Below are positions 25,010 through 45,770 of a stretch of 64,000 bases of DNA, piece after piece. A program made the position numbers and the translations under genes. Origin of the DNA: an uncultured Acidimicrobiaceae bacterium (GTDB lineage Bacteria > Actinomycetota > Acidimicrobiia > Acidimicrobiales > Bog-793); contig CAWHOY010000006.1 of assembly GCA_963831155.1 (NCBI GenBank), positions 138,987-202,986 of the forward strand, read 5' to 3'. Under the pieces are notes generated by a model. It searched no databases, was not told the DNA's origin, and saw nothing but the letters and a program-made list of their open reading frames with translations. Position 1 is the first letter of the stretch. Every line of letters begins with the position of its first letter.

Positions 25010-25449
25010 CTTTCTGCGTCGAGCGCGCTGATCTTCTCGATGCGAATCTCATGTCGACCGCCGTCAAACGATGAATCGATGAAGGCGTCGAGCGCGTCGA
25101 CCGCCACGAAATCGCCGAGGAGCCGAGCGCCGAAGCAGACGACGTTCGCGTTGTTGTGGTGCTTTGCGAGGCGCGCGGACGAGACGTCGTGGACAACGGC
25201 GGCGCGGACACCGGGGATCTTGTTCGCCGCGATCGAGATGCCGATCCCGGTTCCGCACACGCAAACACCGACATCGGCGCCGCCCCCGACGACCGCTCGT
25301 CCCACCGCGGCTCCGTAGTCCGGATAGTCGACCGGCGTCTCGTCGTACGTGCCGAGATCGGTGACCTCGTACTCTGACTTTTCGAGGTGTTCACGCAAAA
25401 GCTCTTTCAGCGGGAAACCGGCGTGATCCGACCCGACCGCGAAGCGCAC
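25006..25449 (-). CDS. rpiB: ribose-5-phosphate isomerase B
   Basis: [11 protein letters not shown] and [13 protein letters not shown] motifs. The start is trimmed to GTG 25449. Confidence 0.9.
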
Positions 25450-25530
25450 GACAGGCGAGTTTAGGCAGCTATGAGGGAATTTCTCGGACGCTCGTCCAAT
25501 GGTTGAGATCGCACAACACGACCCCGACAA

Positions 25531-26979: not shown

Positions 26980-28050
<1,071 letters not shown>

Positions 28051-28116
28051 CAGATGCAGCTACCAATCGTGATCGGGCGTCCCCCGGTCGCGCCTACGTT
28101 CACATCCGGAATGCGG

Positions 28117-28332
28117 TCAGCGCTTGCGCTTTCCCCGCTGTCCGTAACGACGTTCGAAGCGCTCGACTCGGCCACCGGTGTCGACGAGCTTCTGCTTGCC
28201 CGTGTAGAAGGGGTGGCACTCGTTGCACAGCTCGACATGGAGCTCCGCCTTGGTCGAGCGCGTCGTAAAGGTGTTGCCGCATGAACAGCGCACCGTCGCG
28301 ACGACGTAGTTCGGGTGAATTTCAGCCTTCAT
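28117..28332 (-). CDS. rpmE: 50S ribosomal protein L31 (Zn-binding type)
   Basis: MKAEIHPNY..., CxC...CxxC cysteines, HPFYTGKQ. Confidence 0.95.
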
Positions 28333-28377
28333 GGTGACCTCGATGCTAACGGCGGGACGACGTGCCTCCGAGAACGC

Positions 28378-30066: not shown

Positions 30067-30407
30067 TAGATCTGCTCCTGATTGTCATGATTCGGTTGCA
30101 CAGGACACCGCTTTGCCGCCTGGGGAGGTAACCCGATTCCTCTGTGTCAGTCCTTCACCGACGTTTCTGGGATCAGGTCCGCCGTGGTCACGTGAGGGGG
30201 CGGTGAAAGGCGTCGAGGCGGCACCACGACGCCGATCGGGGGTGCGGCGGTTGGAACCGGACGCGACCTCGACGGAAACGGAATGTGCCCACCACCGACC
30301 GGAGGCCATTCGCAGACGCGCGAATTCGCCTCTGTCCGATCAGGTAGTGGTCCTAGTGTACCGGCTGGAGAGAGGACCGGCAACGCAATCGGGATTCCTG
30401 CGTGGAA

Positions 30408-31733
30408 TCAGACCTCGAGCCTCAGCAGGTCCTCAGGCGTCTCTCGACGGATGACGACGCGGGCGTCTCCCTTTTCGACGAACACGACCGCCGGTCGCCC
30501 GAGGCGGTTGTAGTTCGAGGCCATCGACATGCCGTACGCGCCGGTGACCGGGGTGGCGAGCAGGTCGCCGACCTCGACGTCGTCGGGCAGGCGCGCGTTC
30601 GAAACGAGGACGTCGCCGGACTCGCAGTGCTTTCCGACGACGCGACACTGAAACGGCCGTGGCGCACCGGTCGCGCGCGGCAAGAACGCCTCGTAGCCGC
30701 TGCCGTACAGCACCGGTCGCGGGTTGTCGCTCATCCCCCCGTCGACGGCAACATACGTACGCACGTCGGGGAGGCGCTTGATCGTACCGACCCGGTAGCA
30801 GGTAACCGCCGAGGTGGCGACGATCGCACGGCCGGGCTCGGCGCCGACACGAATCGACTCGTGGAGGCCCGCCGCGCGGCGCCCGTCGCTGACGGCGTCG
30901 GCCCACTGCGCAATCGTCGGCGCGTCCTCGTCGGTCAGGTACGCGACCCCGAGTCCTCCGCCCACCGACAACTCCTCCAGTTCGTACTTTGCGATCAGCT
31001 GCGAGAGCGACTCGACGAGTCGCTCGAACGAGTCGAGCCGAAGGATCTGACTGCCGATGTGCGCGTGCAATCCGACAACTTCGACGCCTCGCAGCCGTCG
31101 CAACAGCTCGATTGCCCGCGCCGCCTCGCCGGTCGCGAGGGGAAGGCCGAACTTCGAGTCAACGCGACCCGTTGCGACAAAATCGTGGGTGTGAGCCTCG
31201 ATCCCCGGGTTCACCCGAACGAGAACCGAGATCGCACCCGGAGAAGACTCATCGAGAAGTCCGGCGACTCGTTCGATCTCGTCGAACGAGTCAACGACGA
31301 TCCGACCGACCTTGTGATCGAGCGCCAACGCGAGTTCTTCATCGGACTTGTTATTGCCGTGCAGAACGATGCGTTCCCCGGCTGCGCCCGCCGCGATCGC
31401 AACCGCGAGTTCACCACCAGTCGATACGTCGATGTTCAACCCCTCGTCAAGCACGACTTCGAGCACCGCCTTGCAGATGAACGCCTTTGATGCGTACGTG
31501 ACGAGGCCGCCGAAGGCTGCCATCGCTTCGCGACAGCGGGCGCGAACGGTTGCGACGTCGTAGACGAAAAGTGGCGTTCCGTAGGCTTCGGCGAGACCTT
31601 CAAGTTCTATCCCTCCGACAAGCAACTGGCCCTTCGAAGAGACCTCTGCACTGTCGGGCAGGAGATGTCGTCCGATCGGCGCCTCGCTCGGGGCAGGACC
31701 GACTTCGGACTCGAGCTGTTCGGGATCGATCAC
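30408..31733 (-). CDS. lysA: diaminopimelate decarboxylase
   Basis: YGTPLFVYD, PLP lysine in TYASKAF, and CESGD near the C-terminus. GTG 31733 overlaps the argS stop (GTGA). Confidence 0.93.
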   Translation of the reverse strand: MIDPEQLESEVGPAPSEAPIGRHLLPDSAEVSSKGQLLVGGIELEGLAEAYGTPLFVYDVATVRARCREAMAAFGGLVTYASKAFICKAVLEVVLDEGLNIDVSTGGELAVAIAAGAAGERIVLHGNNKSDEELALALDHKVGRIVVDSFDEIERVAGLLDESSPGAISVLVRVNPGIEAHTHDFVATGRVDSKFGLPLATGEAARAIELLRRLRGVEVVGLHAHIGSQILRLDSFERLVESLSQLIAKYELEELSVGGGLGVAYLTDEDAPTIAQWADAVSDGRRAAGLHESIRVGAEPGRAIVATSAVTCYRVGTIKRLPDVRTYVAVDGGMSDNPRPVLYGSGYEAFLPRATGAPRPFQCRVVGKHCESGDVLVSNARLPDDVEVGDLLATPVTGAYGMSMASNYNRLGRPAVVFVEKGDARVVIRRETPEDLLRLEV

Positions 31734-33340
31734 ATCGACTCCGGCGCGCTCACACCGAGAATGCCGAGACCTATCAACAATCCCGCCCTTACGGCTTCGA
31801 CGAGAACAAGACGTGCGCCGCTCAGCTCGTCGCTGATCTCATCGCCGAGCACTCGACAATCGTGGTAGAAGGCGTGAAAGTCTGATGCGAGCTGGCGCAC
31901 CCAGTTCGTCACCTTGTACGGCGCGCGCTCGATCGCCGATTCCTCGACGACCGAGGGAAGGTCGATCAACCGCCGGATGAGCTCGATCTCTCGGGGGTGG
32001 ACGAGCAGCGAGAGCTGCGCTTTTTCGACCGACGGTGTCTTCACTCCGCGGTCTTTCGCCACCCGGCCGATCGACTCGATCCGCGCGTAGGCGTACTGGA
32101 CGTAATAGACGGGATTCTCCATCGACTGGCGTTGCACCGCATCGAGGTCGATCGTCGTCGATTGATTGATCGAGTTCATCAAAGTCAGCAAGCGCGTCGC
32201 ATCCGGGCCAACGGTGTCTATGAGCTCGTCGAGGCGAACGAAATGACCAGCGCGCTTGGACATCTTTCCGCTGACAAGCGAAACGACCTGTCCCAAAAGG
32301 ATTTCGAGACGTCCCGGGTCAATTCCGAGCGCAGAGACACCGGCGCGCAGGCTCGCGACCTGGCCGTGGTGGTCGGCGCCCCAAACATCGATAACGCGGT
32401 CAAACTCTCGAGTGACGAACTTGTCGCGGTGGTACGCGAGGTCCCCCGCCAGGTACGTCGGCTGACCATCCGAGCGCACGAGGACGCGATCGCGACTGTC
32501 CCCAAAGGCCGACGAGCGGAACCACGTCGCGCCGTCCGCGTCGTATAAAGCCCCGCTGTTTCGCAGGATCGCGATCGTCTGGTCGACGAGGCCTGACTCT
32601 TCGATCGATGCCTGGCTGTACCAACGATCGAAGACGATCCCGAGCCGTTCGAGCGTCGCTGTGATGTTGGCAACGATCTTGTCGGAGGCGAACTTCCCCG
32701 CGGTCATCGCTTCGTCGGGTCCTTCGTAGTCGGTAGCCAACTCAACGAGGTACTCCCCTTGGTAGCCCTCCTCCGGCGGCGCGTCGCCGGCGCGACGAGC
32801 AAGCAAGCTTTCACCGAGCAACTTGATCTGGTTCCCGGTGTCGTTGAGGTAGTACTCCCGCTCGACGGCGAACCCGCAACGTTCAAGGAGTCGACCGAGC
32901 GCGTCGCCGTACGCGCCGAACCAGCCGTTGCCGACATGGAGGGGCCCGGTCGGATTCGCCGAGACGAACTCGATCTGGACACGCTCATCGTGGCCGAGGT
33001 TCGGCCGGGCGTAGTCCGCCTCGCCTTCGGTGACGATCGACGCGAGGGCGTCGTGGTAGTAGCTCGACCGAAGACGGAAGTTCACGAATCCCGGACCGGC
33101 AACTTCGACGGATTCGACGTGCTCGACGCCCGCGACTCGAAGACGCGCCGCGAGGTCGTCGGCCACCTGTCTCGGCGGCTCGGATGCCCGCTTCGCGACG
33201 ACTAGGGCGATGTTCGTCGACAGATCGCCGTGCTCTTCTCGTTGCGGGCGCTCGAGGAGGATCTCGTCGCGCGAGGTGTCGATCCCTGCTGATGACAAGG
33301 CCGCTGAGATCGCATCGACGAGGAAATCTGTCGTCGTCAT
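31730..33340 (-). CDS. argS: arginine--tRNA ligase
   Basis: HIGH-type motif ANPTGPLHVGNG and KMSK motif GKMSKRAG. The start is trimmed to ATG 33340 (MTTTDFLVD...). Confidence 0.93.
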   Translation of the reverse strand: MTTTDFLVDAISAALSSAGIDTSRDEILLERPQREEHGDLSTNIALVVAKRASEPPRQVADDLAARLRVAGVEHVESVEVAGPGFVNFRLRSSYYHDALASIVTEGEADYARPNLGHDERVQIEFVSANPTGPLHVGNGWFGAYGDALGRLLERCGFAVEREYYLNDTGNQIKLLGESLLARRAGDAPPEEGYQGEYLVELATDYEGPDEAMTAGKFASDKIVANITATLERLGIVFDRWYSQASIEESGLVDQTIAILRNSGALYDADGATWFRSSAFGDSRDRVLVRSDGQPTYLAGDLAYHRDKFVTREFDRVIDVWGADHHGQVASLRAGVSALGIDPGRLEILLGQVVSLVSGKMSKRAGHFVRLDELIDTVGPDATRLLTLMNSINQSTTIDLDAVQRQSMENPVYYVQYAYARIESIGRVAKDRGVKTPSVEKAQLSLLVHPREIELIRRLIDLPSVVEESAIERAPYKVTNWVRQLASDFHAFYHDCRVLGDEISDELSGARLVLVEAVRAGLLIGLGILGVSAPESM

Positions 33341-33431
33341 GAGAAGAGGCCCGGTTCCATCAGGCAAGTAGCATCGCAGCACCGCAGCGCGATGCCGACT
33401 GGCTGTGGATGCGACGGTTCCCGCACAACCA

Positions 33432-33503
33432 GCCCTCGTAGCTCAGGGGATAGAGCACCGGCCTCCGGAGCCGGGCGCGTGGGTTCGAATCCCGCCGAGG
33501 GCA
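33432..33503 (+). tRNA. tRNA-Arg (anticodon CCG)
   Basis: Hand-folded cloverleaf: acceptor GCCCTCG/CGAGGGC, D stem GCTC/GAGC, anticodon stem CCGGC/GCCGG with loop CTCCGGA (U33, CCG, G37), 4-nt variable loop, T arm GTGGG-TTCGAAT-CCCGC, discriminator A. CCA is not fully encoded. Confidence 0.9.
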
Positions 33504-33504
33504 C
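33458..33504. repeat. attL-like 47-bp direct repeat (3' part of tRNA-Arg)
   Basis: ccggcctccggagccgggcgcgtgggttcgaatcccgccgagggcac is identical base-for-base to 43105..43151. Confidence 0.9.
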
Positions 33505-33575
33505 CTACAGAAAGTCCAGCTCAGCACGCTTATTTACCTCTTGCTCGGAGTCGCACGAGGGCCACGATCCTCCGA

Positions 33576-33595
33576 TCGGCCACAAATCGGCCACA
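33576..33595. repeat. two direct TCGGCCACA copies, 11-bp spacing (candidate arm-type recombinase sites, P' side)
   Basis: TCGGCCACAaaTCGGCCACA lies 72 nt inside the attL repeat. The same 20-mer occurs at 42957..42976. Confidence 0.6.
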
Positions 33596-33883
33596 CGCGC
33601 GTGACGCGCGTTAGGGAACACAGCGGTCACTCACGCAAGACGACGGTCTCTACTCGACACCGACGAGCACGATCGTCATCTTCATAGTTTGACTCTCGAG
33701 TGTCAGACGTCGGCCGCTGAACGAAGCCGCGCCCGTTTCCGACTGCAGCTTGCGGGTGAGTGGAGTCGTGATAGATGAGACCGGGCAACCGGCAGCGTTC
33801 TCGAGTGTTATGGGATGGCCACGACACGACACGACAAGAGGGGCCCCGGAACCTGAATGACCGCTGGCCTCCTGAGTTCGCGC

Positions 33884-34066
33884 TCATGCCTCTCCTGATT
33901 GATCGAGCGGACCGACCCGGAAGCCCGCAGCAGCCAACCACTCGCGCGCGCGGCCGCGTTGGCGTTCGTCAGAGAAGCGATACCAACGCTTCTGGTCGTC
34001 GGGCCAGCGAGCGGCGACGTCGGCCTCGCGATCCTCTCGGCGCCCATCGCGAGCATCGCCGGTCAT
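33884..34066 (-). CDS. small basic protein, unknown function
   Basis: 60-aa ORF (…WPDDQKRWYRFSDERQRGRAREWLAAAGF…). ATG 34066 overlaps the stop of the upstream membrane-protein gene (ATGA). Third codon positions are GC-rich. Confidence 0.5.
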   Translation of the reverse strand: MTGDARDGRREDREADVAARWPDDQKRWYRFSDERQRGRAREWLAAAGFRVGPLDQSGEA

Positions 34067-34728
34067 CGACTGTCGCGGCGTTGCTCTCGTTCCCGTAACG
34101 CTCGGAGGGACCGTCGCGTTCTGTCGGTGGACTTGTCGAGTCGTGTTTCCTGACGTCTGAGGGTGGCCAGGCGCCTTTGGGATTGCTGGACGCGACGTGA
34201 GTCAATGGGACGACCGGAAGAGGCGTCTGCTTCCATCGAGCGGACTTCGGCGCCCAGCTCGCCAATTGTTCGATCTCGTTGTTCGGCGAGTCGATCCAAG
34301 TCTTCTTCGAAGGGGACCGGCTCGCGATCTCCTACTGCAATTGCCCAGAACAGGGTGACAGTTGGAAGCGCGATTACAGCCGGCAGGACGAGGACCTGAG
34401 CTGCCTCGCTGACAGTTCGGCGGTCCAATGCAATAAGCCCTGCCACCTCCGCCGCCCAACCCAGGAAGGTAACAGCAGGTAAGAGCGCAGTGAGGAGGAG
34501 CAACAGCCCCCTGAAGATCCAGTGCATCCGCTCCCGGAACGACTCAAAGCGTCGAAGCTTCCTGTACCGGTAGAGCGCGACCATGCGCCCCAAGAGTGGC
34601 GAGCGCGCCGCGCGTAACTCGACCGCCAACGTGATGAAGAAGATGGGTATCACCGTCACCGACGCTGTGTAGAAGGCGCTATTGAACGGTCGCTGCGCCG
34701 CAACCAACAACGCTGCGAGATCGTTCAT
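34063..34728 (-). CDS. 4-TM membrane protein with C-terminal coiled-coil, unknown function
   Basis: Starts at MNDLAALLVAAQ. ATG 34728 overlaps the MerR-like stop (ATGA). Four hydrophobic helices are followed by an Arg/Glu-rich helical tail of about 80 aa. Confidence 0.6.
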   Translation of the reverse strand: MNDLAALLVAAQRPFNSAFYTASVTVIPIFFITLAVELRAARSPLLGRMVALYRYRKLRRFESFRERMHWIFRGLLLLLTALLPAVTFLGWAAEVAGLIALDRRTVSEAAQVLVLPAVIALPTVTLFWAIAVGDREPVPFEEDLDRLAEQRDRTIGELGAEVRSMEADASSGRPIDSRRVQQSQRRLATLRRQETRLDKSTDRTRRSLRALREREQRRDSR

Positions 34729-35060
34729 CTCTTGCCGGCCAGCTTGTCCTCGAGCTCGATGATTCGACGGATCCCGATCATCGGTATTCCCTCCCCAGCA
34801 AGCAGGACAGCGCGAGCAAGGCGAGCGATGTCGTCTCGCGAATAACGGCGCTGACGACCAGTGCTGCGCTGCGGGGTGATCAAGCCCTCGGTGTCGTAGC
34901 GACGGACAATCTGGACGTCGATGCCGAGCAGATCGGCCACGACCCCGACGGTGAACAGTGCGTGCGCGCCGAGGTGTTGGCCCGCCACCTCGATCCGGCG
35001 GGCCTTGGAGCCTTCGGCGACCGGGATGGTCACGTGGATGAGCAACAGTCCGACAGCCAT
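34725..35060 (-). CDS. MerR-family (HspR-like) transcriptional regulator
   Basis: HTH FTVGVVADLLGIDVQIVRRYDTEGLITPQRSTGRQRRYSRDDIARL followed by GIRRIIELEDKL, which resembles HspR. The start may be GTG 34988 rather than 35060. Confidence 0.75.
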   Translation of the reverse strand: MAVGLLLIHVTIPVAEGSKARRIEVAGQHLGAHALFTVGVVADLLGIDVQIVRRYDTEGLITPQRSTGRQRRYSRDDIARLARAVLLAGEGIPMIGIRRIIELEDKLAGKR

Positions 35061-35083
35061 CTCGAATCACTCCTTCCTGCACA

Positions 35084-35284
35084 ATGAGATGTGCCGCTGA
35101 GCGACAAACAGCTGGAGAGATCCTGCGCCTGATCGCGGCGGGCTTCTCCGACCGAGAGATCGCCAGCCGCGTCTATCTCAGCGAGAACACCGTCAAGTCA
35201 CACGTTCAGGAGATCTTTCGGAAGTTGGACGTCGGGAACCGCGTGGAAGCCGCGCTCAGAGCCAGCAAGGAGGGTCGGATCTGA
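35084..35284 (+). CDS. stand-alone LuxR/GerE-type HTH protein
   Basis: 66 aa: EILRLIAAGFSDREIASRVYLSENTVKSHVQEIFRKLDVGNRVEAA matches the LuxR C-terminal HTH. There is no receiver domain, so it could be a remnant. Confidence 0.6.
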   Translation: MRCAAERQTAGEILRLIAAGFSDREIASRVYLSENTVKSHVQEIFRKLDVGNRVEAALRASKEGRI

Positions 35285-35346
35285 GCAGGTCGGCGAAGAA
35301 AGCAGCTTCCTCTCGTTCCGAGATTAGAGCCTCCCACGCAGCGACA

Positions 35347-36663
35347 TCAGGGGTGCCGAGTCAATTGCCGCGCGCGAAGCACGTAGCACCCGGGCGTGCG
35401 CACACTCGCCCGGAGCGAGGTCGTAGAGGTCACGCACGGTTCACCATCGAGAGACACGATCAAGGGCGTGTCGCTTCTGACTTCGATGACCTTTCCGGCA
35501 GCAATCGTCGCGCCTCGCCGCTGGTCGACGTTGCCGAACATGAGCCGTATCAACCCCGCAGCAGTAAGCCGCAGCGCGCCGCGGAACGACACGATCGTCT
35601 CGAGCAAGCCATCGTCGACTGCCGATCCGGGCAGGGGAATGCCAACCCGACCCCCGAGACGTGGGGCGTTAACGATGGCGACCTGGAATGCTGCACTGGG
35701 GGCGACCAACGGCTCGCCGTCAACCAAGATCCTGACCGACAAGGGTGTGCGCTCCCTCCAGGCTTGCCAGGCCCGAAACGGGTAGACAAGCGGCCGACGC
35801 CACCCGCGGATATCTCGAATGCGCTGGGCGAAGTCGGCTGTCATGCCGTAGGTCGCTGCGTGAGCGAACGAACCGTGGCCGGTCGTTCCAAGATCCATCG
35901 GCGCTGGGTCAGCTGTGGCAACAAGATCGATGGCTTCCTCCGGGCTGAGCGGAAGACCGAGCGACCGGGCCACGTCGTTGCCGGTTCCTGTCGGCACGAT
36001 CGCAAGTGTCCGCCCCGCGTTGCCGGCTTCGAACGCAGCGCGCCCGACCGTTCCGTCACCTCCAGCGACGACGAGGATTCCCTCAGCCGGTAGTGACGCC
36101 AACGATTCGGTCAACGCCCGGCCAAGGCCAGCTCCGGTCGTGCGCACGATGCTCACGATCTCGACTGGCTGGCGCCGTAGGGCCCGCACGGCGCGCCTTG
36201 CGAGATGCGGGGATCCCGAGTGAATGTTGATCACCATCGCGACTTGCCGGCCGCTGCTAGGCCGGGGCCGGCGGTCCGCCGCCTCCTCGGCAGCAGCTAC
36301 CGCAAGCATCGCTCCGGCGAGGCCGCAGATGAACGCAGTCAGGCCCTCCTTCGTGCTCCGTCCCGATCGGAGGGCGGTTCTCGCCTCCAGCATGCCGGCC
36401 GCTAAAAGGAGGGGAATCCGCCATGACGGGACGACGCGACCAATCCCGTACGCGGCGCTAGCGGCACTCAATCGCCAGCTTGGAGAGCCTCCCCTCGCGC
36501 TGAGCTGACCCCCGATGCTGGCCGCGCAAAGCGTGCCGAGGGCGCGCCACCGCTTCTCCTTCACGAGGCGGCCCAGCCCAAAGAGCACGATGGACCCCGA
36601 GACAAGCGGGGTCCATCGCTTGCCCATGACCGACACTCGCCTAGCGGTCATGATCCCCTTCAT
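35347..36663 (-). CDS. diacylglycerol-kinase-family lipid kinase with N-terminal hydrophobic domain
   Basis: DAGK catalytic motifs ILVVAGGDGTVG and AIVPTGTGNDVARSLG. About 130 N-terminal residues carry hydrophobic segments. The start is taken at ATG 36663 (alternatives 36651, 36627). The upstream part of the 552-aa ORF uses A/T-ending codons. Confidence 0.75.
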   Translation of the reverse strand: MKGIMTARRVSVMGKRWTPLVSGSIVLFGLGRLVKEKRWRALGTLCAASIGGQLSARGGSPSWRLSAASAAYGIGRVVPSWRIPLLLAAGMLEARTALRSGRSTKEGLTAFICGLAGAMLAVAAAEEAADRRPRPSSGRQVAMVINIHSGSPHLARRAVRALRRQPVEIVSIVRTTGAGLGRALTESLASLPAEGILVVAGGDGTVGRAAFEAGNAGRTLAIVPTGTGNDVARSLGLPLSPEEAIDLVATADPAPMDLGTTGHGSFAHAATYGMTADFAQRIRDIRGWRRPLVYPFRAWQAWRERTPLSVRILVDGEPLVAPSAAFQVAIVNAPRLGGRVGIPLPGSAVDDGLLETIVSFRGALRLTAAGLIRLMFGNVDQRRGATIAAGKVIEVRSDTPLIVSLDGEPCVTSTTSLRASVRTPGCYVLRARQLTRHP

Positions 36664-37314
36664 CCATCCGGGATACTTGGAAGCAATCGTGAGATTGGCA
36701 CGATCGCCCGGTACCCGACAGCTCCGTCCAGGCAGAGATATCGGGGATGGAAATACCTCTTTAGTGGGAGTCAAGTGCATTCTCGAGGCGGGTCTCATGT
36801 AGGGCGAGTCGAGGCCGTCCACGTCTAACCCATCTACCTGGAGATTTCCTGGAACGGGGAATCTGGTCGCAGCAATATTTTCTAAATCTTCGACTCGCCG
36901 ATCTTGGATCAATGTTCCTTTGTGGGTGAGCCGGCAAAGCAGCATGGGAACGTTTCCAACGAATACAGACGGCGCATCGCGCGCTCGTCGACGTGAACCG
37001 CACATCTAGCGGCTTAGGCGAACCGGCCCAGTCTCGTTGCCTGGCGCGTCGCGTTATCCATCCGGCGTTGTGAGACACCAAGATCCAGGATTCGCTGACG
37101 TTATGGGGCGCGCCGAGCACCGGCGCGTGGGCTCGCTTGCGCGAGCGCTCGTGCATTCGTTAACGGCTCTCGCGCGTGCCATCGCTTGAACGGGTTCGCG
37201 CGCGCTGATGTGGAGAACTGCTGACTTCTCAACCAGTGTTCTAGCGTCAGTCGCATCTCGCACTGGTATGCAGATGCCGCACTACTCCTCGGGGCTGGTG
37301 TCCTTGCCGGCGCG

Positions 37315-38013
37315 GTGGGGTCTGCTGGCGGCATCACCTCGTTGATCTCCTACCCGGCGCTACTCGGTGTCGGTCTTGCGCCGCTGCCAGCGAACGTTAC
37401 GCAAGCTGTCGCTTTCGTCGCGAGTTGGCCTGGATCAGTGTTGGGCTCCCGGCCAGAGTTGCGGGGACAGGGATACTGGCTGCGGCACTGGGGGCTGCTC
37501 ATCGCCGCGGGTGGGGCTAGTGGTGTCGCGCTGCTGCTCGGTGTCCCAGCGAGAGTCTTCGGTCACGTCGTGCCGTTCCTTCTCGTGTTCGCCTCGTGCG
37601 CCCTGCTCCTCCAGCCGAGGCTCAGCGCGTGGCATGAGCGCAACTTCGGTCGTGGTAGTCGCTTGTTGCTGCCCTGTGGGCTGTTCGCGGTCTCGGTGTA
37701 CAGCGGCTACTTCGGAGCTGGTGCGGGGATCATTCTTCTCGCCCTGTTGCTCGTGACTGCTCACCAGGACTTGTCACGGGCCAATGCCCTTAAGAACATG
37801 CTTCTCGGTGTGGCCGACGTCGCCGCCGCGGTCGGCTTTGCCGCTTTCGGACCCGTCGACTGGACAGCTGCGGCACCGTTGGCACTCGGCATGCTCGCCG
37901 GGAGCAGGGTCGGGCCCTCCATCACTCGCCGGGTGTCAGGAAACGTGCTTCGTGTGCTGGTCGCGCTCGCGGGATTCGGGCTGGCAGTCCGACTCTGGAT
38001 CAGCCCCGGCTAG
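37315..38013 (+). CDS. TauE/SafE-family (DUF81) anion exporter, start codon problematic
   Basis: GSAGGITSLISYPALL and a repeated internal GAGAGIILL motif, polytopic. The first canonical start (GTG 37315) lies inside what looks like TM1. Confidence 0.7.
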   Translation: MGSAGGITSLISYPALLGVGLAPLPANVTQAVAFVASWPGSVLGSRPELRGQGYWLRHWGLLIAAGGASGVALLLGVPARVFGHVVPFLLVFASCALLLQPRLSAWHERNFGRGSRLLLPCGLFAVSVYSGYFGAGAGIILLALLLVTAHQDLSRANALKNMLLGVADVAAAVGFAAFGPVDWTAAAPLALGMLAGSRVGPSITRRVSGNVLRVLVALAGFGLAVRLWISPG

Positions 38014-38383
38014 CGATCAAGTCGCAATCCTGACGGGTTCGCGTAAACGGCAGCCGTCCGCTGTGCTCGACTGACCGGAAGCAAAGATGAGACGCACCCG
38101 GTTATCAGTGGCACCTCTTTTCGCAACTTTCGTTGCGCGTAATGAGAACGCTCGCTCGCGCGGTTTGCGGTCATCAGCCGCAGATTGGTGCGGCAGGGCC
38201 GCGTCAGGTGGTCGTCGCGCCTGCCGCGCGCCTCGCCAGGGACCGGCGTCTACCGCTGGATCAGGGCGTGGCGATTGCCCAAGACCCGGGATTACACGCG
38301 CGATCGCGCTCAGTTCGTGCCCACCAAAATGGGGCGTCGAAACTCGACTGCTAGCCGCCCATCAGCCTGAAGGGCAGCAGCCC

Positions 38384-39169
38384 TCACTCAATGATTTCGC
38401 CCGATCGTGCCATCGTGACGGAGAGCACCCCTTCGATCTCTGACAATGCGGACGCGAGACGATGAACGACGGGCGATCCGAGGATTTGTAGAGCGACATC
38501 TACCGTGTCGCCGTGATCATGCGTCGGCGAATGACCAACCGCGCCATTGGAGTCGAGATTCGTTGGCTCTCGTCCGCGCCGTGTTTCGATGGAGGTCACC
38601 GAGAACCCGGAGGCTGTAGTCGACGCAAGGATCGTGCGGAGCAACCCTCGCCCGTCGACATAGCGAACTTGGATTGTCGAAGACGTAAAGCGGGAGAGCC
38701 CGAAATGTCGAGTCAGTCGAGGGTACCCCTGAGCGACGAGGAAGTGCCCTCCGGTCGCAACCGCCGCGAGCACAGGAAGGCCTGCGCCGCAGGCAGCGCC
38801 GACCGCCGCGGTCAGCCAAACGACCGCGGCGGTCGTGAGTCCCTGAACGGCGTCGCGACGCACGAAGATGAGACCGCCACCGATGAAGCCGATGCCCGTC
38901 ACGATCTGTGCGGCGACCCGGGATGGATCGAGGATGACTTTGCCCGTCTCGAGCACGTTCGTGAAGCCGTACTTGCTTATAAGCACGAATAATGCAGCGC
39001 CAACACCGACGAGAGCATGCGTGCGAAGGCCGGCGCTTTTTTGACCGAGTTCGCGCTCCAAGCCGATCAGCGACGAGAGCACGAGAGCGGTCGCGAGATC
39101 GATGACCTGCGCCCATCCCTGCCCGGTGGGTTCGCTAAGCACCAGCGCCATAAGTCCTGGTCCGTGCAA
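38384..39169 (-). CDS. mgtC: MgtC/SapB-family membrane protein
   Basis: [28 protein letters not shown] and [11 protein letters not shown] motifs plus a soluble C-terminal domain. Confidence 0.85.
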
Positions 39170-39199
39170 GCTGGCGGCTCGCTCCTTTGGTCGAGAAAG

Positions 39200-39462
39200 A
39201 CGCTCTCAAACACCCGGGGTCAAGGTTAACCAATGATGACTGGAAGGTAAAAAACAGGTAAACGAAGTCAAGTCGCTGGTCGCCACGCTGCCGACAGCAC
39301 CTCCAGCTAAGACGGCAACCAGAATGGCTGAACAAGGCCTGGCCCGATGCGAACCTGCAGGACTACCGAGTTCGCCGTGATACCGGCCGTCATGCCGATG
39401 GCGCCGTCGAGTAGCAACCAGACGAGCGTCAGCCACGAGATCCGCCTCACGCTGCGGACCAA
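39200..39462 (-). pseudogene. possible remnant of a cation-efflux (CDF-like) transporter gene
   Basis: A short frame reads VRRISWLTLVWLLLDGAIGMTAGITANSVVL, like the first TM of ArsR-associated cation transporters. It ends at TAG 39307. Weaker similarity continues in another frame. It is divergent from arsR. Confidence 0.3.
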
Positions 39463-39530
39463 GGTTGCGTGTTCGAAGGGTTTAGCGCAACCTCACTCAT
39501 GCGATTCAGAATATCAATAGCGCCTGCTGT

Positions 39531-39548
39531 CATCAAATATACTTGATG
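39531..39548. promoter_or_regulatory. inverted repeat CATCAA-N6-TTGATG upstream of arsR (candidate operator)
   Basis: Perfect 6-bp arms 5 nt upstream of the arsR ATG. Functional assignment is inference only. Confidence 0.3.
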
Positions 39549-39552
39549 CGTT

Positions 39553-39867
39553 ATGGACCAACCTGATCCGGGTGAGGTCGCGGAGTGCCAGCGCTTGGCG
39601 TCGCTGTGGGCACCGGTGCTTCATGCGCTCGCCAACCCCGAGCGGTTGTTGATCGCCCTCTGGCTCGCCGGCTCGAAGAGCTCGGTGCGCGAGCTGGAAG
39701 CAGTGACCGGGCTCAGCCAATCTCTGGTCTCGTACCACCTTCGTGCACTTCGCGAGGCTGGTCTCGTGACGGTCACAGCCGACGGACGCAGCAATCGCTA
39801 CAGCCTGTCGAACGCCGACCTCGACAAGTTGGCACTCCTCCTCGGGGGCGTCGAAGGCAACTCTTGA
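39553..39867 (+). CDS. ArsR/SmtB-family metalloregulator
   Basis: HALANPERLLIALWL...SVRELEAVTGLSQSLVSYHLRALREAGLV winged-helix signature. Confidence 0.85.
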   Translation: MDQPDPGEVAECQRLASLWAPVLHALANPERLLIALWLAGSKSSVRELEAVTGLSQSLVSYHLRALREAGLVTVTADGRSNRYSLSNADLDKLALLLGGVEGNS

Positions 39868-39939
39868 GGACGAATACACACAGCTCAGACTTGGAGAAGA
39901 GTCACCTGCCACGCGATCTGTGACGCTCTCGTCAAATCT

Positions 39940-41350
39940 TCCACGGGCACGTTTAGACACCCCATGTCCGCAAGGAGTCAAGCGGCAATGCCGTCTCGAT
40001 GGCTCCAGGCGGTCGGTTCGTCGTAGAAGACGCCGTCTTCAAGACAGGTGTGAAGGATTCCCACCCATCGATTCGCCAGCTGCCGGAGCGCCTGTCGATG
40101 GGTCTTGCCGCGACCTCTCAGCTCGTTGTAGTAGCGCCGAGCGCCTTTCGATTTGGTGATTGAACAAAAAGCCCACCGATCGAGCGCATCGCCGAGTCGT
40201 CTATTGCGAGCGAATCGTGCGAGCACGACACGACTGTGCCCGGAGGCTTTGGTCACCGGCGACGTGCCGGCGTAGTTCTTGCGAGACTTCGCATTCGAGA
40301 AACGAGTCCGGTCATCTCCGAACTCGCCGAGCACCCGGGCGCCAAGGACCGTCCCGATTCCTGGCAGGGAGCGGACGATTTTCGCGTCCGGGTGCGTCTC
40401 AAAATGCTGCGACAGCGCGTCTTCGAGCACTGCGATTTCCCGGGTGAAGCTCGCTATTAGACCGAGGGCCGACCGGGTGACGATCCCGTAGGCACGAGCG
40501 ACCGCCGGTGGCGCTTCTAAGTAGTTGGCCCGCAGCGCGGTTTGGATCTCTTCTGCTCTCCGTTCGATGTTGCGGAGTCGACCTCCTCGACGAAGCGCCG
40601 AGGCGATCTTCGACTGGGAGAGTCCCCGCCCGAGCTCGGGGGTCGGAGCGATCTGCAGCACTGCGAGCGCATCGACGTGGGATAGATCGGTCCCAAAGAC
40701 CGCGAGGGCTCCCGGGTAGTACTCGCGAAGGGCGGACCGCAGCGCGTTCACCTGTCGCTGGCGGCCCCAGATCGCGGACTGGTGTGCTCTTGCAAGCAGC
40801 TTGATCTCTTCGACGAGCTCGGAATCACCAGACACCGGCCGGTGGTTGTGGCGGTCGGTTCGCACAAGGTCGGCGAGCACTTTGGCATCGCCCGTGTCGG
40901 ACTTCGCTCCCGAGACAGCGTGCCGATCCCGATAGCGAGATGACGCCATCGGGTTGATCGCGAAGACCTCATAACCGGCACCGAGGAGGGCCGTGACGAT
41001 GAGCCCCCGGTCGATCTCGATGCCAACGATGACCGGTTCTTCGTCGTCAGCGTGTTCGGCGACAAGTTCGTGCAACTCGCCGATCCCCGCCGCGCTGTCA
41101 GGGACCCTGCGTCTCCCGAGCACCTGGCCGTCTTCGGCCATCACGCAGACGTCGTGGTGGTCCTCGGCCCAGTCGACTCCGACAAAGATCACTACTCCTC
41201 CTCTCGACAACCCACACGAGCCAGAGGAGAACAGCGGCGACCTAATGGATCAGTGCTCGAGGCACGACACCCCAACAGCCGTCAGACTCCTCGCCGACTC
41301 GTCGGGGCACGCTCTAAACATAGAGATCGAAGTCTCTGGGACACCGAGTG
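39940..41350 (-). mobile_element. IS110-family insertion sequence (boundaries approximate)
   Basis: Single DEDD/Transposase_20 gene with short non-coding ends. An imperfect direct repeat flanks the coding region: GGCACG(tttag)ACACCCCA at 39945-39963 and GGCACGACACCCCA at 41261-41274. No terminal inverted repeats were seen, as is usual for IS110. Confidence 0.6.
39978..41210 (-). CDS. IS110-family transposase
   Basis: N-terminal VFVGVDWAEDHHDVCV (RuvC-like DEDD) and C-terminal LPGIGTVLGARVLGEFGDD...YAGTSPVTKASG motif. 410 aa. Confidence 0.92.
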   Translation of the reverse strand: MSRGGVVIFVGVDWAEDHHDVCVMAEDGQVLGRRRVPDSAAGIGELHELVAEHADDEEPVIVGIEIDRGLIVTALLGAGYEVFAINPMASSRYRDRHAVSGAKSDTGDAKVLADLVRTDRHNHRPVSGDSELVEEIKLLARAHQSAIWGRQRQVNALRSALREYYPGALAVFGTDLSHVDALAVLQIAPTPELGRGLSQSKIASALRRGGRLRNIERRAEEIQTALRANYLEAPPAVARAYGIVTRSALGLIASFTREIAVLEDALSQHFETHPDAKIVRSLPGIGTVLGARVLGEFGDDRTRFSNAKSRKNYAGTSPVTKASGHSRVVLARFARNRRLGDALDRWAFCSITKSKGARRYYNELRGRGKTHRQALRQLANRWVGILHTCLEDGVFYDEPTAWSHRDGIAA

Positions 41351-41361
41351 CTCACCGACGA

Positions 41362-41766
41362 GTGGCTCGGAGAACAGCCTGCTGCTCAGCAACCGGCTAC
41401 TCCAGTCCCATTAGGAACCTCGGCTGGCCCGAGACCCCCGACAGCGACGAGCACCACCGGACCTTCCAGTGCACGAACGGCGTCGTGGTCGCGCTTTACG
41501 GCGCCAACAACTACGAGCCGCACTTCGGCCCGCCGACGACGGGCTTCCGTGGCATCACCATCTCGGTCAACCTCGAGTCCTTCGAAGAGTGCCAAGCCGT
41601 CTATGAGACTTTGCGCGGCGTCCCCGACGTCGAGCTGCTTGAGGAGCCCACCGAGGCCTTCTGGGGCGGGGGGTTCAGCTGGCGGGACCCGGAAGGGAAC
41701 ATCTGGGACGTCGCCTGGGCGAAGGGCACGAGCTTCGACGAGCGCGGCGGGTTGCGCTTCCCCTGA
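41362..41766 (+). CDS. VOC (glyoxalase/bleomycin-resistance) family protein, probably 5'-truncated
   Basis: C-terminal FWGGGFSWRDPEGNIWDVAWAKG signature. Homology starts near LGWPE. No convincing first beta-strand or start codon (GTG 41362 is only a guess). It abuts the IS110 end. Confidence 0.55.
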   Translation: MARRTACCSATGYSSPIRNLGWPETPDSDEHHRTFQCTNGVVVALYGANNYEPHFGPPTTGFRGITISVNLESFEECQAVYETLRGVPDVELLEEPTEAFWGGGFSWRDPEGNIWDVAWAKGTSFDERGGLRFP

Positions 41767-41938
41767 GCGATACCGCCCTCCTCCCGCGATCCTTCACCTT
41801 CTCCTTCCCATCCCCGGGGGCGCCGGTCCACCAGTCGCCGACCCCATGCACATGTCTGCTACGCAGCGCGCGGACCCGGCGTTTGAGGGCACCTTCCGCC
41901 CGCGCATTATGGGTCAGGCACGTGGTGCGCCCTATTCG

Positions 41939-42514
41939 TTATGGGCCTCCAAACGCGTCGCCGCAGACTTTCTGCGCGGCCTGGAACTGGGGCGAACGCG
42001 GATCCACCCCAGCAAGCTGGATCCCGAACTGGCGGCTATTCGAGATGATCTTCGGATCGGGGAAATTCGGCAGACCGTGGGTGCGCATGCAATGCGCCCA
42101 CTCCAACAACTTGGTCGTTTCGGCGGCGATCTGGGCGGCAGTCGGCAGCCCGCCGTTGTCCGGCAGGAGGTGCTTGCAGTTGTTGTTCGCCGATGTGAAC
42201 TGGGGTGAGTTCGAGTCGGCCTTCGGGTTGAAGCTGATGTTGCCGCCGCTGCGCACCGGGTCGGGGAAGTTCGGCACCCCGTGGGTGCGCATGCACTCGG
42301 CATACGACAGCACGTATTCGTACTGCTCGTTGGCGCCCGCGAAAGGCGACGGGTTTGCCGTGCCGAGTGCGACGGTGGATGTGGTCGTCGATCCGATGCT
42401 CGCGACTCCCGGCGCGGCCGAGCCATTTCCGCAGGCGGCAAAGAGGGTCGCCACGGCGGCAAGCGCCAGTCCGACCCCGGCAGTTCTCATCTTCCTTGTT
42501 TGAGCGGCTCGCAT
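41939..42514 (-). CDS. lipoprotein with two tandem Cys-containing repeats
   Basis: Signal peptide with lipobox LFAAC. Two ~50-aa repeats each contain CMRTHG(V/L)PNFPDP ... SPQF ... C. The start is ATG 42514 (or 42490). Confidence 0.7.
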   Translation of the reverse strand: MRAAQTRKMRTAGVGLALAAVATLFAACGNGSAAPGVASIGSTTTSTVALGTANPSPFAGANEQYEYVLSYAECMRTHGVPNFPDPVRSGGNISFNPKADSNSPQFTSANNNCKHLLPDNGGLPTAAQIAAETTKLLEWAHCMRTHGLPNFPDPKIISNSRQFGIQLAGVDPRSPQFQAAQKVCGDAFGGP

Positions 42515-42589
42515 CACTCTCGGTTCTGGAACCTTCGCTTCATCGTTCCTCGCTGACGTTGTACCCCGTACGAGACTGCGATGGGGAGA

Positions 42590-42955
42590 GCTAGCGGGGC
42601 TGAAGCGTGTGATCGTGACCGAGCTATGACCGATGCGCTGGGCAACCGCTGCGCGGGCACCGTCGTCGAGATCGGAGACCGGGGCGTCGTCACGATCGCG
42701 CTCGACCTCACCACCCTCATCCATGGCAAGGAGCCGGCGTCAGCGGAGCGGTAACGCGGTTGAGCGGGAGACGAACCGGAACTCGCTGCGAGCAGACGCG
42801 TCGATCTTTTGCACCGGGAGTTGACGGTCGTTGAGCAACTCACCGAGTTGAAACTGCCTCCTCGAACAAGGTTACCGGGCGACCGGATTCGGGATCGGCG
42901 GCCCGAAGACCTTTTCCATCGAGCGGTACTTCGACGCGGGGGAAAGACGTTCGCC
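42590..42955 (-). pseudogene. tyrosine-recombinase (integrase) remnant, catalytic-domain part only
   Basis: Hand translation gives one frame reading VEVPLDGKGLRAADPESGRPVTLFEEAV. After a frame change it reads RSEFRFVSRSTALPL, then an in-frame TGA (42740), then ...GGEVERDRDDAPVSDLDDGARAAVAQRIGHSSVTITRF. This matches the spacing of the HxLRH...LGHSS...T...Y box with the catalytic residues replaced. The N-terminal half is absent. Confidence 0.4.
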
Positions 42956-42956
42956 G

Positions 42957-42987
42957 TCGGCCACAAATCGGCCACATTTCGGCCACA
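42957..42987. repeat. three direct TCGGCCACA copies at exact 11-bp phasing (candidate arm-type sites, P side)
   Basis: TCGGCCACAaaTCGGCCACAttTCGGCCACA ends 118 nt before the attR repeat. Same orientation as the pair at 33576-33595. Confidence 0.6.
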
Positions 42988-43104
42988 TTCGAACGGCAAA
43001 TCGAGGTTTGCCAACGGTCGGTCCCGGACAGTAATTTAGGTTACCTGACCAGCATTTATGAGTCCTACTGGTCGGTCGCGGTCAATGGCGGAAAATGCCC
43101 CGAT

Positions 43105-43151
43105 CCGGCCTCCGGAGCCGGGCGCGTGGGTTCGAATCCCGCCGAGGGCAC
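43105..43151. repeat. attR-like 47-bp direct repeat (partial tRNA-Arg 3' end, not a gene)
   Basis: Identical to 33458..33504. The preceding 26 nt are unrelated to the tRNA 5' half. Confidence 0.9.
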
Positions 43152-43176
43152 GCGAGGCGTCGCCGCCGCGGATCGA

Positions 43177-43740
43177 TCATGAGCGGTCGGCGATCGGAAC
43201 GCGGGCGAGTTCGTCTTCGGCCAACCCGAGGAGGTCGCTCGCGCCAGCGTCCGAGGACACCGACACCGCGAGGTATCCCTGGTCGACGACGACGTACGTC
43301 ACGTGACCCCTCCGAAAGCTGATCGCCCAGTCCCCGACGTCGTGGACGCGATGCAACTTCACCCCTTTCGGATTTCGTAACGACATCGGAGGGAACAGCT
43401 CGTAGTTCACGACCACCGAGCTACGCGGAGATCGGGCGAGGTCGCCGTAGCTGCACGTGACCGTCGGACTCGTACTTTGATCGAACGACCGCTCCCTCGT
43501 CGCCGCCGTTGTCGGCACGGGGACGTAGAAGTCGAGCTCACTCACGGGTGGACACAACATCGACGCGGACGGAAGCCGTGCGTCGATCGGAAACGATTGG
43601 GAAGATGGCGGGGCGGCGGCGCCGCAGCCTGCAACCGCGAGCGCGAGCGCAACGAGTCCGATTCCAGCGGCGCATCGCGCACGGTGCTGCACCATTCGCC
43701 CTGCGGCTCCGTTGCTTCGGCGGACTCGCGGTCGGGTCAT
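43177..43740 (-). CDS. lipoprotein, unknown function
   Basis: Arg-rich n-region, hydrophobic core and lipobox LAVAGC. The start is ATG 43740 (or 43695). The longer ORF-track N-terminus was rejected. Confidence 0.55.
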   Translation of the reverse strand: MTRPRVRRSNGAAGRMVQHRARCAAGIGLVALALAVAGCGAAAPPSSQSFPIDARLPSASMLCPPVSELDFYVPVPTTAATRERSFDQSTSPTVTCSYGDLARSPRSSVVVNYELFPPMSLRNPKGVKLHRVHDVGDWAISFRRGHVTYVVVDQGYLAVSVSSDAGASDLLGLAEDELARVPIADRS

Positions 43741-43836
43741 GCGAATTCGAGAGACCGCATCGAGGAAGCATACGAAGTGAGCGCATCTGCTCCCAGAACG
43801 ACGGCGCCCGGCCGCGCGTCGGTCCGCGCGGCGGCG

Positions 43837-43852
43837 TTGACAAAAACTTGAT
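43837..43852. promoter_or_regulatory. direct repeat TTGAC-N6-TTGAT upstream of the kdp operon (candidate KdpE/OmpR-type box or -35 region)
   Basis: Two TTGA(C/T) half-sites 11 bp apart, about 60 nt upstream of the first kdp ORF. Purely positional inference. Confidence 0.25.
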
Positions 43853-43908
43853 GCGCCGAGCTCGAGCTTTGACGACTTCTTCACGACATTCGCAGCACAC
43901 TCCCAGTC

Positions 43909-43992
43909 ATGGCTGACTTCCTCGCCGTGATCGGAATCGTCGTGTTCACTGCGGCGTTCCTCGGTTACATCTGGCTGTTGGAGCGAGTATGA
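43909..43992 (+). CDS. 27-aa hydrophobic peptide, KdpF-like, upstream of kdpF
   Basis: MADFLAVIGIVVFTAAFLGYIWLLERV. Its stop overlaps the kdpF start (ATGA). It is too short for the ORF track and was found by hand translation. Confidence 0.5.
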   Translation: MADFLAVIGIVVFTAAFLGYIWLLERV

Positions 43993-44078
43993 CCTCGATC
44001 CAGGCCCTGCTGCTCGCCGTTTCGGTAGTCGTGTTCATCTACCTCGGCGTCGCCATGTTCAAGCCCGAGTGGTTTTAG
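43989..44078 (+). CDS. kdpF: K+-transporting ATPase subunit F
   Basis: 29 aa, MTSIQALLLAVSVVVFIYLGVAMFKPEWF. It matches the KdpF pattern (TM helix, YL..A...PE.F). Its stop is immediately followed by the kdpA GTG. Confidence 0.75.
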   Translation: MTSIQALLLAVSVVVFIYLGVAMFKPEWF

Positions 44079-45770
44079 GTGGGTTACTTCTGGACGATCG
44101 TCACCCTCGTCGTCGCGCTGGGTCTGACGTGGCGCTATCTCGGTTCCTACATGGCCGCCGTCTTCGACGGCCGCGTGCACTGGCTCGCCTGGGCGGAACG
44201 ACCGATCTACCGCGCTCTGGGTACCAGCCCCGAGCAGGAACAGACCTGGAAGCGCTACGCGGTCTCGCTGATCATTTTCTCGGGTATCTCGTTCGGGCTC
44301 ACGTATCTCATCTTGCGTCTCCAGGGTTCGCTGCCGCTCAACCCCCAACACCTTGACGCGGTCGGCCCAGCACTGAGCTTCAACACTTCTGCCTCGTTCC
44401 TCACCAATACGAACTGGCAGAACTACGGCGGCGAAGAGACGATGTCGTACTTCTCCCAGATCGGCGCGCTCACCGTCCAGCAGTTCGTCTCCCCGGCCGT
44501 CGGCATCGCCGCTGCCATCGCGATGGCGCGCGGCTTTTCCCGGCGGAACTCTCCGACGATCGGCAACTTCTGGGTCGACCTCACCCGGTGCATGTTCTAC
44601 ATCCTGCTTCCCATCGCTTTTGTTGCGGGGATCATCTTCGTCGGTCAAGGTGCGGTCGAGACGCTCGCCGGCACGATCAGCATCCACGACGCCCTGAACG
44701 GCGTGACACAGACGATCGCCCGCGGACCTATCGGATTCATGGAGGCGATCAAGCAGCTCGGTACGAACGGTGGTGGCTTCCTCAACGCGAACTCGGCGAC
44801 GACGTTCGAGAACCCGACCGCCCTCACCAACTGGCTCTCGATCTACCTGCTCCTCTCGATCCCGTTCGCCCTCACCTACACCTTCGGGAAGATGGTGGGC
44901 AGCATCCGCCACGGGGTGGCACTGCTGGCGGCGATGCTTGTGATATTCGGGAGCTGGGTCGCCTTCACGAGCTACGCCGAGCACCAGGGCAACCCGGCGA
45001 TCGCCGCCGCCGGCATCAAGAGCCAGCCGACCGGAAACATGGAGGGCAAGGAGGTTCGCTTCGGCGACACGACCTCGGCGCTTTTCGGTGTTTCCTCGAC
45101 GAACACCTCGACGGGATCGGCTGACGCCTCGTACGACCAGTTCAACCCGATCGGCGGATTCGGACTGCTCACCGGAATGATGCTCGGTGAGGTCACCCCT
45201 GGCGGAACGGGCAGCGGCCTCTACACGCTTTTGATATACGCCATCATCGCCGTGTTCATCGGCGGGCTGATGATCGGGCGAACACCGGAGTACCTCGGGA
45301 AAAAGATCCAGGCCACCGAGGTGAAACTCGCCGGCCTCGGCTCGCTCGTCATGCCACTCATCGTGCTGATCTTCACAGGCATCGCGGTGTCGATCGCCGA
45401 GGGACGCGCCGGTCCTCTGAACCACGGCCCGCACGGGTTCACCGAGATCCTTTACGCCCTCACGTCACAAGGCAACAACAACGGCTCGGCCTTCGACGGG
45501 ATCTCAGGCAACACACCCTTCTACAACATCGTCGGAGCCGTCGACATGTTGATTGGACGGTTCGGCATCCTCATTCCGGGGATCGCGCTCGGAGGCGTGC
45601 TCGCCAGAAAAAACGTCGTCCCTGCCTCGCTCGGCACGTTCCGCACGGACAACACGATGTTCGTCGGGCTCGTCGTGGGCGTGATCTTGATCATCGGCGG
45701 ACTGACCTTTTTCCCCGCCGTCTCCCTCGGACCGATCGTCGAGCAACTCAGCCACGGAAGGTTCTTCTAA
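44079..45770 (+). CDS. kdpA: K+-transporting ATPase subunit A
   Basis: 563-aa polytopic protein with typical KdpA sequence (NTNWQNYGGE, selectivity-filter-like GTNGGGF). Confidence 0.95.
   Translation: MGYFWTIVTLVVALGLTWRYLGSYMAAVFDGRVHWLAWAERPIYRALGTSPEQEQTWKRYAVSLIIFSGISFGLTYLILRLQGSLPLNPQHLDAVGPALSFNTSASFLTNTNWQNYGGEETMSYFSQIGALTVQQFVSPAVGIAAAIAMARGFSRRNSPTIGNFWVDLTRCMFYILLPIAFVAGIIFVGQGAVETLAGTISIHDALNGVTQTIARGPIGFMEAIKQLGTNGGGFLNANSATTFENPTALTNWLSIYLLLSIPFALTYTFGKMVGSIRHGVALLAAMLVIFGSWVAFTSYAEHQGNPAIAAAGIKSQPTGNMEGKEVRFGDTTSALFGVSSTNTSTGSADASYDQFNPIGGFGLLTGMMLGEVTPGGTGSGLYTLLIYAIIAVFIGGLMIGRTPEYLGKKIQATEVKLAGLGSLVMPLIVLIFTGIAVSIAEGRAGPLNHGPHGFTEILYALTSQGNNNGSAFDGISGNTPFYNIVGAVDMLIGRFGILIPGIALGGVLARKNVVPASLGTFRTDNTMFVGLVVGVILIIGGLTFFPAVSLGPIVEQLSHGRFF

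Follow-up and report, generated by a model that had tools for sequence, protein, structure and literature searches.

A probable decayed, integrase-less island bounded by attachment-site repeats at tRNA-Arg(CCG) in an uncultured Acidimicrobiales bacterium

A 64,000-nucleotide stretch of DNA from an uncultured Acidimicrobiaceae bacterium (assembly GCA_963831155.1, contig CAWHOY010000006.1, positions 138,987 to 202,986), hereafter the window, carries a tRNA-Arg(CCG) gene whose 3' part recurs exactly downstream, at a spacing of 9,647 bp. The DNA enclosed by the two copies is very probably a decayed island that arose by site-specific integration into tRNA-Arg, keeps its attachment (att) sites, lacks an integrase and has had its interior remodelled, much like the cis-mobilisable elements (CIMEs; PMC5704250). 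The features of the island are collected in Table 1. Coordinates refer to the window unless preceded by the number of a contig (L081, L083 and so on).

The footprint of the integration was mapped by a repeat search and confirmed by reading of the sequence. Positions 33458-33504 and 43105-43151 are identical at 47/47 nucleotides on the same strand. The block begins at tRNA position 27, where the anticodon stem starts (CCGGC-CTCCGGA-GCCGG, anticodon CCG), runs through the discriminator at 33503 and ends one base further at 33504, exactly as the sequence-only reading of this DNA had described it. The duplicated flank comprises these tRNA-derived 47 bp and nothing more, and the chance recurrence of a perfect 47-mer within 64 kb is effectively impossible. 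The tRNA-Arg(CCG) gene at 33432-33503 is the regenerated integration target. ARAGORN also reports a 78-nt 'tRNA-Arg' (CCG) at 43074-43151 (+), for which the Rfam tRNA model gives no match at E ≤ 0.1. Since Rfam matches 33432-33503 and not 43074-43151, only the left copy of the repeat belongs to a real tRNA; the second call picks up the displaced 3' fragment, its 5' half being supplied by island DNA. In automated annotation 43074-43151 is likely to figure as a false tRNA, the miscalling of tRNA fragments as tRNAs being a known problem (PMC9897764).

Contigs from close relatives show both states of this site. L081, a JGI metagenome contig of 9,722 bp, is 96.2% identical to 23858-33504, and its tRNA runs straight into sequence 99.3% identical to 43105-43240, so that in alignment it consists of the left half of attL and the right half of attR. 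L217, a Logan contig from a different sample, is 99.0% identical to 43105-44349, and its 47-bp core is preceded by the tRNA D-arm, GGGGATAGAGCA, not by the island's GAAAATGCCCCGAT. In both contigs the tRNA is joined directly to the sequence starting at 43152. This is the empty site that had been proposed as a check, and it backs the earlier claim of site-specific integration into tRNA-Arg with attL and attR. An ENA contig, L087, is 99.83% identical to 31936-42320 and has the identical island at the same tRNA, while L218 ends within the core and is hence uninformative on site occupancy. Because L081 and L217 are empty and L087 is occupied, the 9,647 bp are an insertion that some close relatives have and others lack. 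Relatives that carry the cargo without the repeat, which the sequence-only reading had named as counter-evidence, do exist (93-98% identical), but they carry it at other loci, and the empty sites override this point.

The 47-bp copy could instead be a local segmental duplication or an assembly artefact involving no mobile DNA, given that the cargo resembles chromosomal genes of close relatives and that the GC content is near that of the backbone. This is hardly credible, as the repeat is confined to exactly the tRNA-derived bases, the two empty sites fit the precise junction, and the independent assembly L087 reproduces attL and the island. A composite transposon or an insertion mediated by insertion sequences (ISs) was also considered and rejected: the single IS110 copy is internal, and the ends are formed by the tRNA-derived repeat.

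The island has no detectable integrase. Pfam recognised no recombinase domain other than the DEDD transposase of IS110 in any sizeable open reading frame (ORF), and no Phage_integrase or other recombinase domain at E ≤ 1 in six-frame translations of all unannotated stretches. Further, a regular-expression search for the catalytic motif had no match in the whole window. The right arm beside attR is the expected place for an integrase gene. A minus-strand peptide near 42650, 'RIGHSSVTIT', looks by eye like the C-terminus of a tyrosine recombinase; it was rejected, with no Pfam match at E ≤ 1, and a search of 5.8 billion proteins at E ≤ 10 brought up no homologue of the conceptual 199-aa peptide of this candidate beside attR. 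The integrase remnant listed in the sequence-only reading was therefore not recovered in any frame by Pfam, homologue search or motif search. Its statement that no intact recombinase is present is borne out as regards an integrase, IS110 being the sole recombinase by Pfam, and the rest of its cargo list (IS110, MgtC, TauE, ArsR, a diacylglycerol (DAG)-kinase-like enzyme and gene fragments) agrees with the Pfam results.

Nor was a parent element encountered. Among ten island proteins, PHROGs gave no match to phage structural, packaging or lysis functions, and the functions assigned by Pfam are regulatory, transport or metabolic. Searches of IMG/VR with the tRNA 3' end, an arm 20-mer and both attP-specific junctions returned nothing related, and the 120 matches of the arm motif in JGI metagenomes were all unrelated. 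By blastn, both arms have no relative in phage records, and the island matches plasmid records through IS110 alone, at 66-68%, so that neither the island nor its arms resemble phage or plasmid records beyond this IS. Two island proteins were followed up and set aside. The MerR protein has weak matches to the PHROG 'excisionase and transcriptional regulator' and to Pfam HTH_17; a role as stress regulator is more likely than one as excisionase, because the same gene adjoins HSP20 and DoxX in relatives. The lipoprotein beside attR gave no lead to a parent element, the surroundings of its closest homologues being IS-rich or ordinary chromosomal DNA, with neither an integrase nor a tRNA close by.

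Between the cores and the cargo lie two arms specific to the element. Neither arm has a counterpart in the relatives with the same cargo, apart from the left arm in L087, and six-frame searches yielded no Pfam domain at E ≤ 1 in either arm. Both arms contain arrays of the 9-mer TCGGCCACA, of which the window has nine copies where 0.65 are expected from shuffled sequence; five of the nine lie in the two arm clusters, all in one common orientation. These arrays are presumed, by analogy, to be arm-type sites of a tyrosine integrase, because they would flank the core on both arms of a circular attP, a layout typical of such sites. The attP junction is predicted as …GGAAAATGCCCCGAT + 47-bp core + CTACAGAAAGTCC…. 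As a separate observation, two self-complementary 8-mers, ACGCGCGT, with one base between them, occupy 33595-33611 and directly abut the left-arm pair of TCGGCCACA; with 4 copies where 6.8 are expected, this 8-mer shows no enrichment across the window.

The interior of the island is a patchwork with at least eight junctions, mapped against L082-L089, whose pieces are 91-98% identical to contigs of related organisms, where they are located elsewhere and without an att core. Matches to L082-L086 cover 34013-34967 (membrane protein and MerR), 35095-35285 (LuxR fragment), 37923-39358 (MgtC region), 39358-39956 (ArsR) and 41411-41893 (glyoxalase), and L088 and L089 are matched by 35288-36817, which holds the DAG-kinase-like gene. 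In these relatives DoxX, HSP20, HtrA, ferritin and an exporter of the cation diffusion facilitator (CDF) family belong to the module as well; of HSP20 and DoxX just scraps of ~55 bp remain in the window (34985-35093). Judged from these alignments, the cargo is a rearranged copy of a stress/ion-homeostasis module that relatives with 93-98% identity carry elsewhere. In L088 (10001-14257) and L089 (635-4889), which are 93-96% identical, a module of DAG-kinase, HSP20, DoxX, MerR and membrane-protein genes is located 2-3 kb downstream of tRNA-Val(GAC). The idea that it forms a second att-flanked island was rejected, as no tRNA-derived repeat was found within 17 kb.

The composition of the island fits DNA of separate history. 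Tetranucleotide distance peaks at 0.21-0.26 over 32.5-42.5 kb vs 0.09-0.15 elsewhere, and GC content is 63.3% in the island vs 65.2% in the rest of the window, with low-GC patches at 36601-36900 and 39201-39400. The earlier claim of a differing composition is thus weakly confirmed. The lowest GC of the whole window is found outside the island, at 20401-21100 (0.54-0.59 in 300-bp windows).

The history best supported by these observations starts from a mobile element that carried an attP identical over 47 bp to the 3' part of tRNA-Arg(CCG) and underwent recombination with the tRNA gene in the chromosome. According to Islander (PMC4383910), the recombinases known to act on tRNA genes are tyrosine integrases, and the most frequent class of attP sites is anticodon-centred with 3' fragments. 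The enzyme would most likely have been a tyrosine integrase, with its crossover most likely in the anticodon-loop region. Recombination would have restored a complete tRNA at attL, leaving the original 3' fragment, now displaced, at attR, and the TCGGCCACA arrays on both arms would be the remains of sites at which the integrase bound the arms. Afterwards the element would have lost its integrase along with every gene for transfer, replication or phage functions, and its interior would have been reshaped by deletions, the IS110 insertion and recombination with the lineage-native stress/ion-homeostasis module (MerR, DAG-kinase-like, TauE, MgtC, CDF, ArsR, glyoxalase), which circulates in this Acidimicrobiales lineage.

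Several points weigh against a decayed, integrated element. The GC difference is small, about 2 points. As for the empty sites, L081 reaches just 89 bp beyond the tRNA, and L217, with 1.2 kb of right flank, holds just 12 nt of the tRNA-specific part (the D-arm). No integrase or fragment of one was found, so the recombinase type is assigned by analogy. Further, no parent element, attP or circular form was found in the viral, metagenome, phage and plasmid collections.

As it stands, the island cannot move by itself and is presumably immobilised. Excision in trans by a cognate integrase is nevertheless conceivable, because both cores are perfect and the presumed arm sites intact. A cassette of this kind would not be dead: it would be mobilisable in cis or in trans. 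It would never have needed an integrase of its own, or would do without one now; integrase and excisionase, recognising the perfect cores and the TCGGCCACA arm sites, would come from a related element elsewhere in the genome or community, so that strains would still be gaining and losing the island. The two identical 47-bp cores and the arm arrays intact on both sides are compatible with such a cassette, as is the variable presence of the island among genomes 99% identical in the flanks (L217 empty, L087 occupied); CIMEs are documented, and their tandem transfer with ICEs (integrative and conjugative elements) has been observed (PMC5704250). However, the cognate integrase was not seen in the 64-kb window, an attP junction or related element is absent from the collections searched, and a single gain followed by integrase loss explains the polymorphism equally well. 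We therefore regard a mobilisable cassette as unlikely. Quite unlikely, too, is the more specific proposal that the stress/ion-homeostasis module is packaged between functional att arms and shuttled between strains in trans by an integrase encoded elsewhere; if true, such shuttling would account for the presence and absence of the island among 99%-identical genomes.

A further possibility is that the repeat marks the ends of a prophage remnant and not those of an ICE, an integrative plasmid or another island, with phage-like DNA in L087 representing the rest of the phage. Beyond the position corresponding to 42320, L087 indeed continues with at least 10 kb of small genes of unknown function, one of which matches a PHROG major head protein (1.2e-7). 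However, this DNA breaks into the lipoprotein gene at a point 785 bp ahead of the attR core, with no att-core junction, and leaves a lipoprotein product without the signal peptide that the window product has. In L216, from the same sample, 42321-44228 (including attR and the 5' end of kdpA) is replaced, which looks like a separate insertion-deletion. Moreover, PHROGs detected no phage structural genes in the island, and the head-like protein has no close relative in IMG/VR. A prophage origin of this kind is very improbable. Our preferred reading remains that of a decayed island from a tRNA-Arg integration.

Comparison with known systems places the island in a known category, as a well-delimited but ordinary decayed tRNA-associated island. 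Like the class A islands of Islander, it has an intact tRNA at one end and a direct-orientation 3' fragment at the other, and its identity block extends from the beginning of the anticodon stem to the tRNA 3' end. Its size is in the usual range of Islander islands, and relatives have the empty site. Unlike them, it is without an integrase gene, and would fail the Islander integrase filter, and its interior is a patchwork of lineage-native genes with no recognisable phage or ICE backbone. CIMEs are decayed derivatives of ICEs or of integrative and mobilisable elements, described in streptococci. The island resembles them in keeping attL and attR without integration or transfer genes (by Pfam and PHROGs) and differs in having no accretion partner at the att site and in its host, an uncultured member of the Acidimicrobiales. 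pSAM2, SLP1 and mycobacteriophage L5 are actinobacterial elements that integrate into tRNA genes. Like the island, they reside in actinobacteria, use the 3' part of a tRNA gene as integration site and have repeated arm-type motifs to either side of the core; unlike it, they encode Int, Xis and replication, transfer or phage genes, none of which is present here.

The value of the island is local rather than general, and it reveals no new mechanism. It does provide a mobile-element footprint mapped to single-base boundaries in the uncultured Acidimicrobiales, where few such elements have been described. The candidate attB/attP core and candidate arm-site motif could be a starting point for finding the cognate integrase, a possible future genetic tool for the Acidimicrobiales. 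Finally, the genes for ion and stress functions (MgtC, TauE, ArsR/CDF, DAG-kinase-like) belong to the accessory content that varies between strains, not to the core genome.

Table 1. Features of the island and its boundaries in window coordinates (HTH, helix-turn-helix)
Feature	Position	Strand	Evidence
tRNA-Arg(CCG) gene, intact	33432..33503	+	ARAGORN 33432-33505; Rfam RF00005 full length, 65.1 bits
attL core, 47-bp identity block	33458..33504	+	Repeat search and reading of sequence
Left arm (P' arm), element-specific, no detectable coding capacity	33505..34011		Present in L087
Two TCGGCCACA 9-mers, 11 bp apart, 72 bp inside attL (presumed arm-type sites)	33576..33595	+	Repeat family
Membrane protein, function-unassigned, 221 aa, translationally coupled to MerR gene	34063..34728	-	ORF
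MerR-family regulator	34725..35060	-	Pfam MerR_1 1.9e-14
LuxR/GerE C-terminal fragment, HTH only	35084..35284	+	Pfam GerE 6e-15
DAG-kinase-like lipid kinase, hydrophobic N-terminal extension, 438 aa	35347..36663	-	Pfam DAGK_cat 6e-18, YegS_C 2e-11
TauE/SafE-family membrane transporter	37315..38013	+	Pfam TauE 1e-29
MgtC-family protein, 255 aa	38384..39151	-	Pfam MgtC 3e-36
CDF gene 5' remnant	39358..39501	-	Window alignment jumps from L083 6881 to 7489 at 39358
ArsR-family regulator	39553..39867	+	Pfam HTH_5 8e-13; exact protein on record
IS110-family IS	39951..41418	-	Pfam DEDD_Tnp_IS110, Transposase_20; transposase 39978-41192, 404 aa
Glyoxalase/VOC-family gene, 5'-truncated by ~112 nt	41411..41766	+	Weak Pfam Glyoxalase match
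Lipoprotein, intact, 183 aa, lipobox LFAAC	41939..42490	-	Exact protein on record
Right arm (P arm), element-specific, non-coding	42568..43104		L219 homology stops at 42568
Three TCGGCCACA 9-mers, 11-bp spacing, 118 bp inside attR (presumed arm-type sites)	42957..42987	+	Repeat family
attR core, displaced tRNA 3' fragment	43105..43151	+	Repeat search and reading; no Rfam tRNA match
Chromosomal right flank (B' side), includes 172-aa function-unassigned ORF 43177-43695	43152..43695	-	Abuts tRNA in empty-site L081 and L217

Several cargo genes bear the marks of rearrangement. At the nucleotide level the membrane-protein gene shares 93% identity with L083, L088 and L089, and its product belongs to no Pfam or PHROG family. 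In the adjoining MerR gene, the first ~14 native codons are replaced by the HSP20/DoxX scraps, as judged from the L083 breakpoints and the gene table. The homologue of the LuxR/GerE fragment in L082 is a GerE protein of 344 aa. The DAG-kinase-like gene is 96% identical to its counterparts in L088 and L089, with the exact 438-aa product on record, and the MgtC gene is 98% identical to those of L083 and L085. TauE apparently lacks the start of its first helix, the profile match starting at position 13 with no in-frame start codon upstream. From the CDF gene, ~608 bp present in relatives are deleted at 39358; in L083, 6976-7632 is a Cation_efflux gene. The glyoxalase gene is 97% identical to L083 from 10981 on, whereas the L083 gene begins at 10869.

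Over 1468 bp the IS110 copy shares 99.86% identity with one at a different locus, in L095, and was therefore recently active. In L083, 8087-10981 (corresponding to 39956-41411 of the window) holds an IS3 element and a different IS110-family element between arsR and the glyoxalase gene. Because these fill the same interval as the IS110 of the window, the arsR-glyoxalase interval is suggested to be an insertion hot spot. Antisense within the IS110 transposase gene, 40287-40368 (+) matches the actinobacterial small RNA family Ms_AS-4 of Rfam (54.8 bits vs a gathering score of 50).

The lipoprotein contains an internal duplication with the motif CMRTHG[VL]PNFPDP. More than 3,000 homologues make up its family, which lacks a Pfam domain and is centred on the Acidimicrobiales; the named members come from Acidimicrobiales metagenome-assembled genomes (MAGs), often in multiple copies, with three in tandem in L219.

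On the left, the island is preceded by lysA (30408-31733, -) and argS (31730-33382, -), the latter divergently oriented to tRNA-Arg(CCG); on the right, the ORF at 43177-43695 (-) is followed by kdpA, kdpB and kdpC. The divergent argS/tRNA-Arg(CCG) pair is kept in 21/21 Acidimicrobiia loci checked. Among the matches listed, the relatives of ArgS in GTDB representatives are Acidimicrobiales or Acidimicrobiia MAGs with at most 64% identity, and synteny in GTDB-representative relatives is kept on the argS side and not past the tRNA. None of 40 relatives having tRNA-Arg(CCG) shows a distant second fragment of this tRNA comparable to that of the island; one of them, L038, has an adjacent scrap only.

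In a sister strain (99.8% identical; ENA sample ERZ25039509), 42321-44228 is replaced by at least 15 kb of foreign DNA, seen in two separate, unjoined contigs (L087 1-10081 and L216 1-4698). The replacement takes in the 5' end of the lipoprotein gene, the P arm, attR, the 172-aa ORF and the first ~150 nt of kdpA. Besides many genes of unknown function, the PHROG major-head-protein match and a DDE_3 transposase, the foreign DNA holds genes with FliM, FliN and FliG_C domains.

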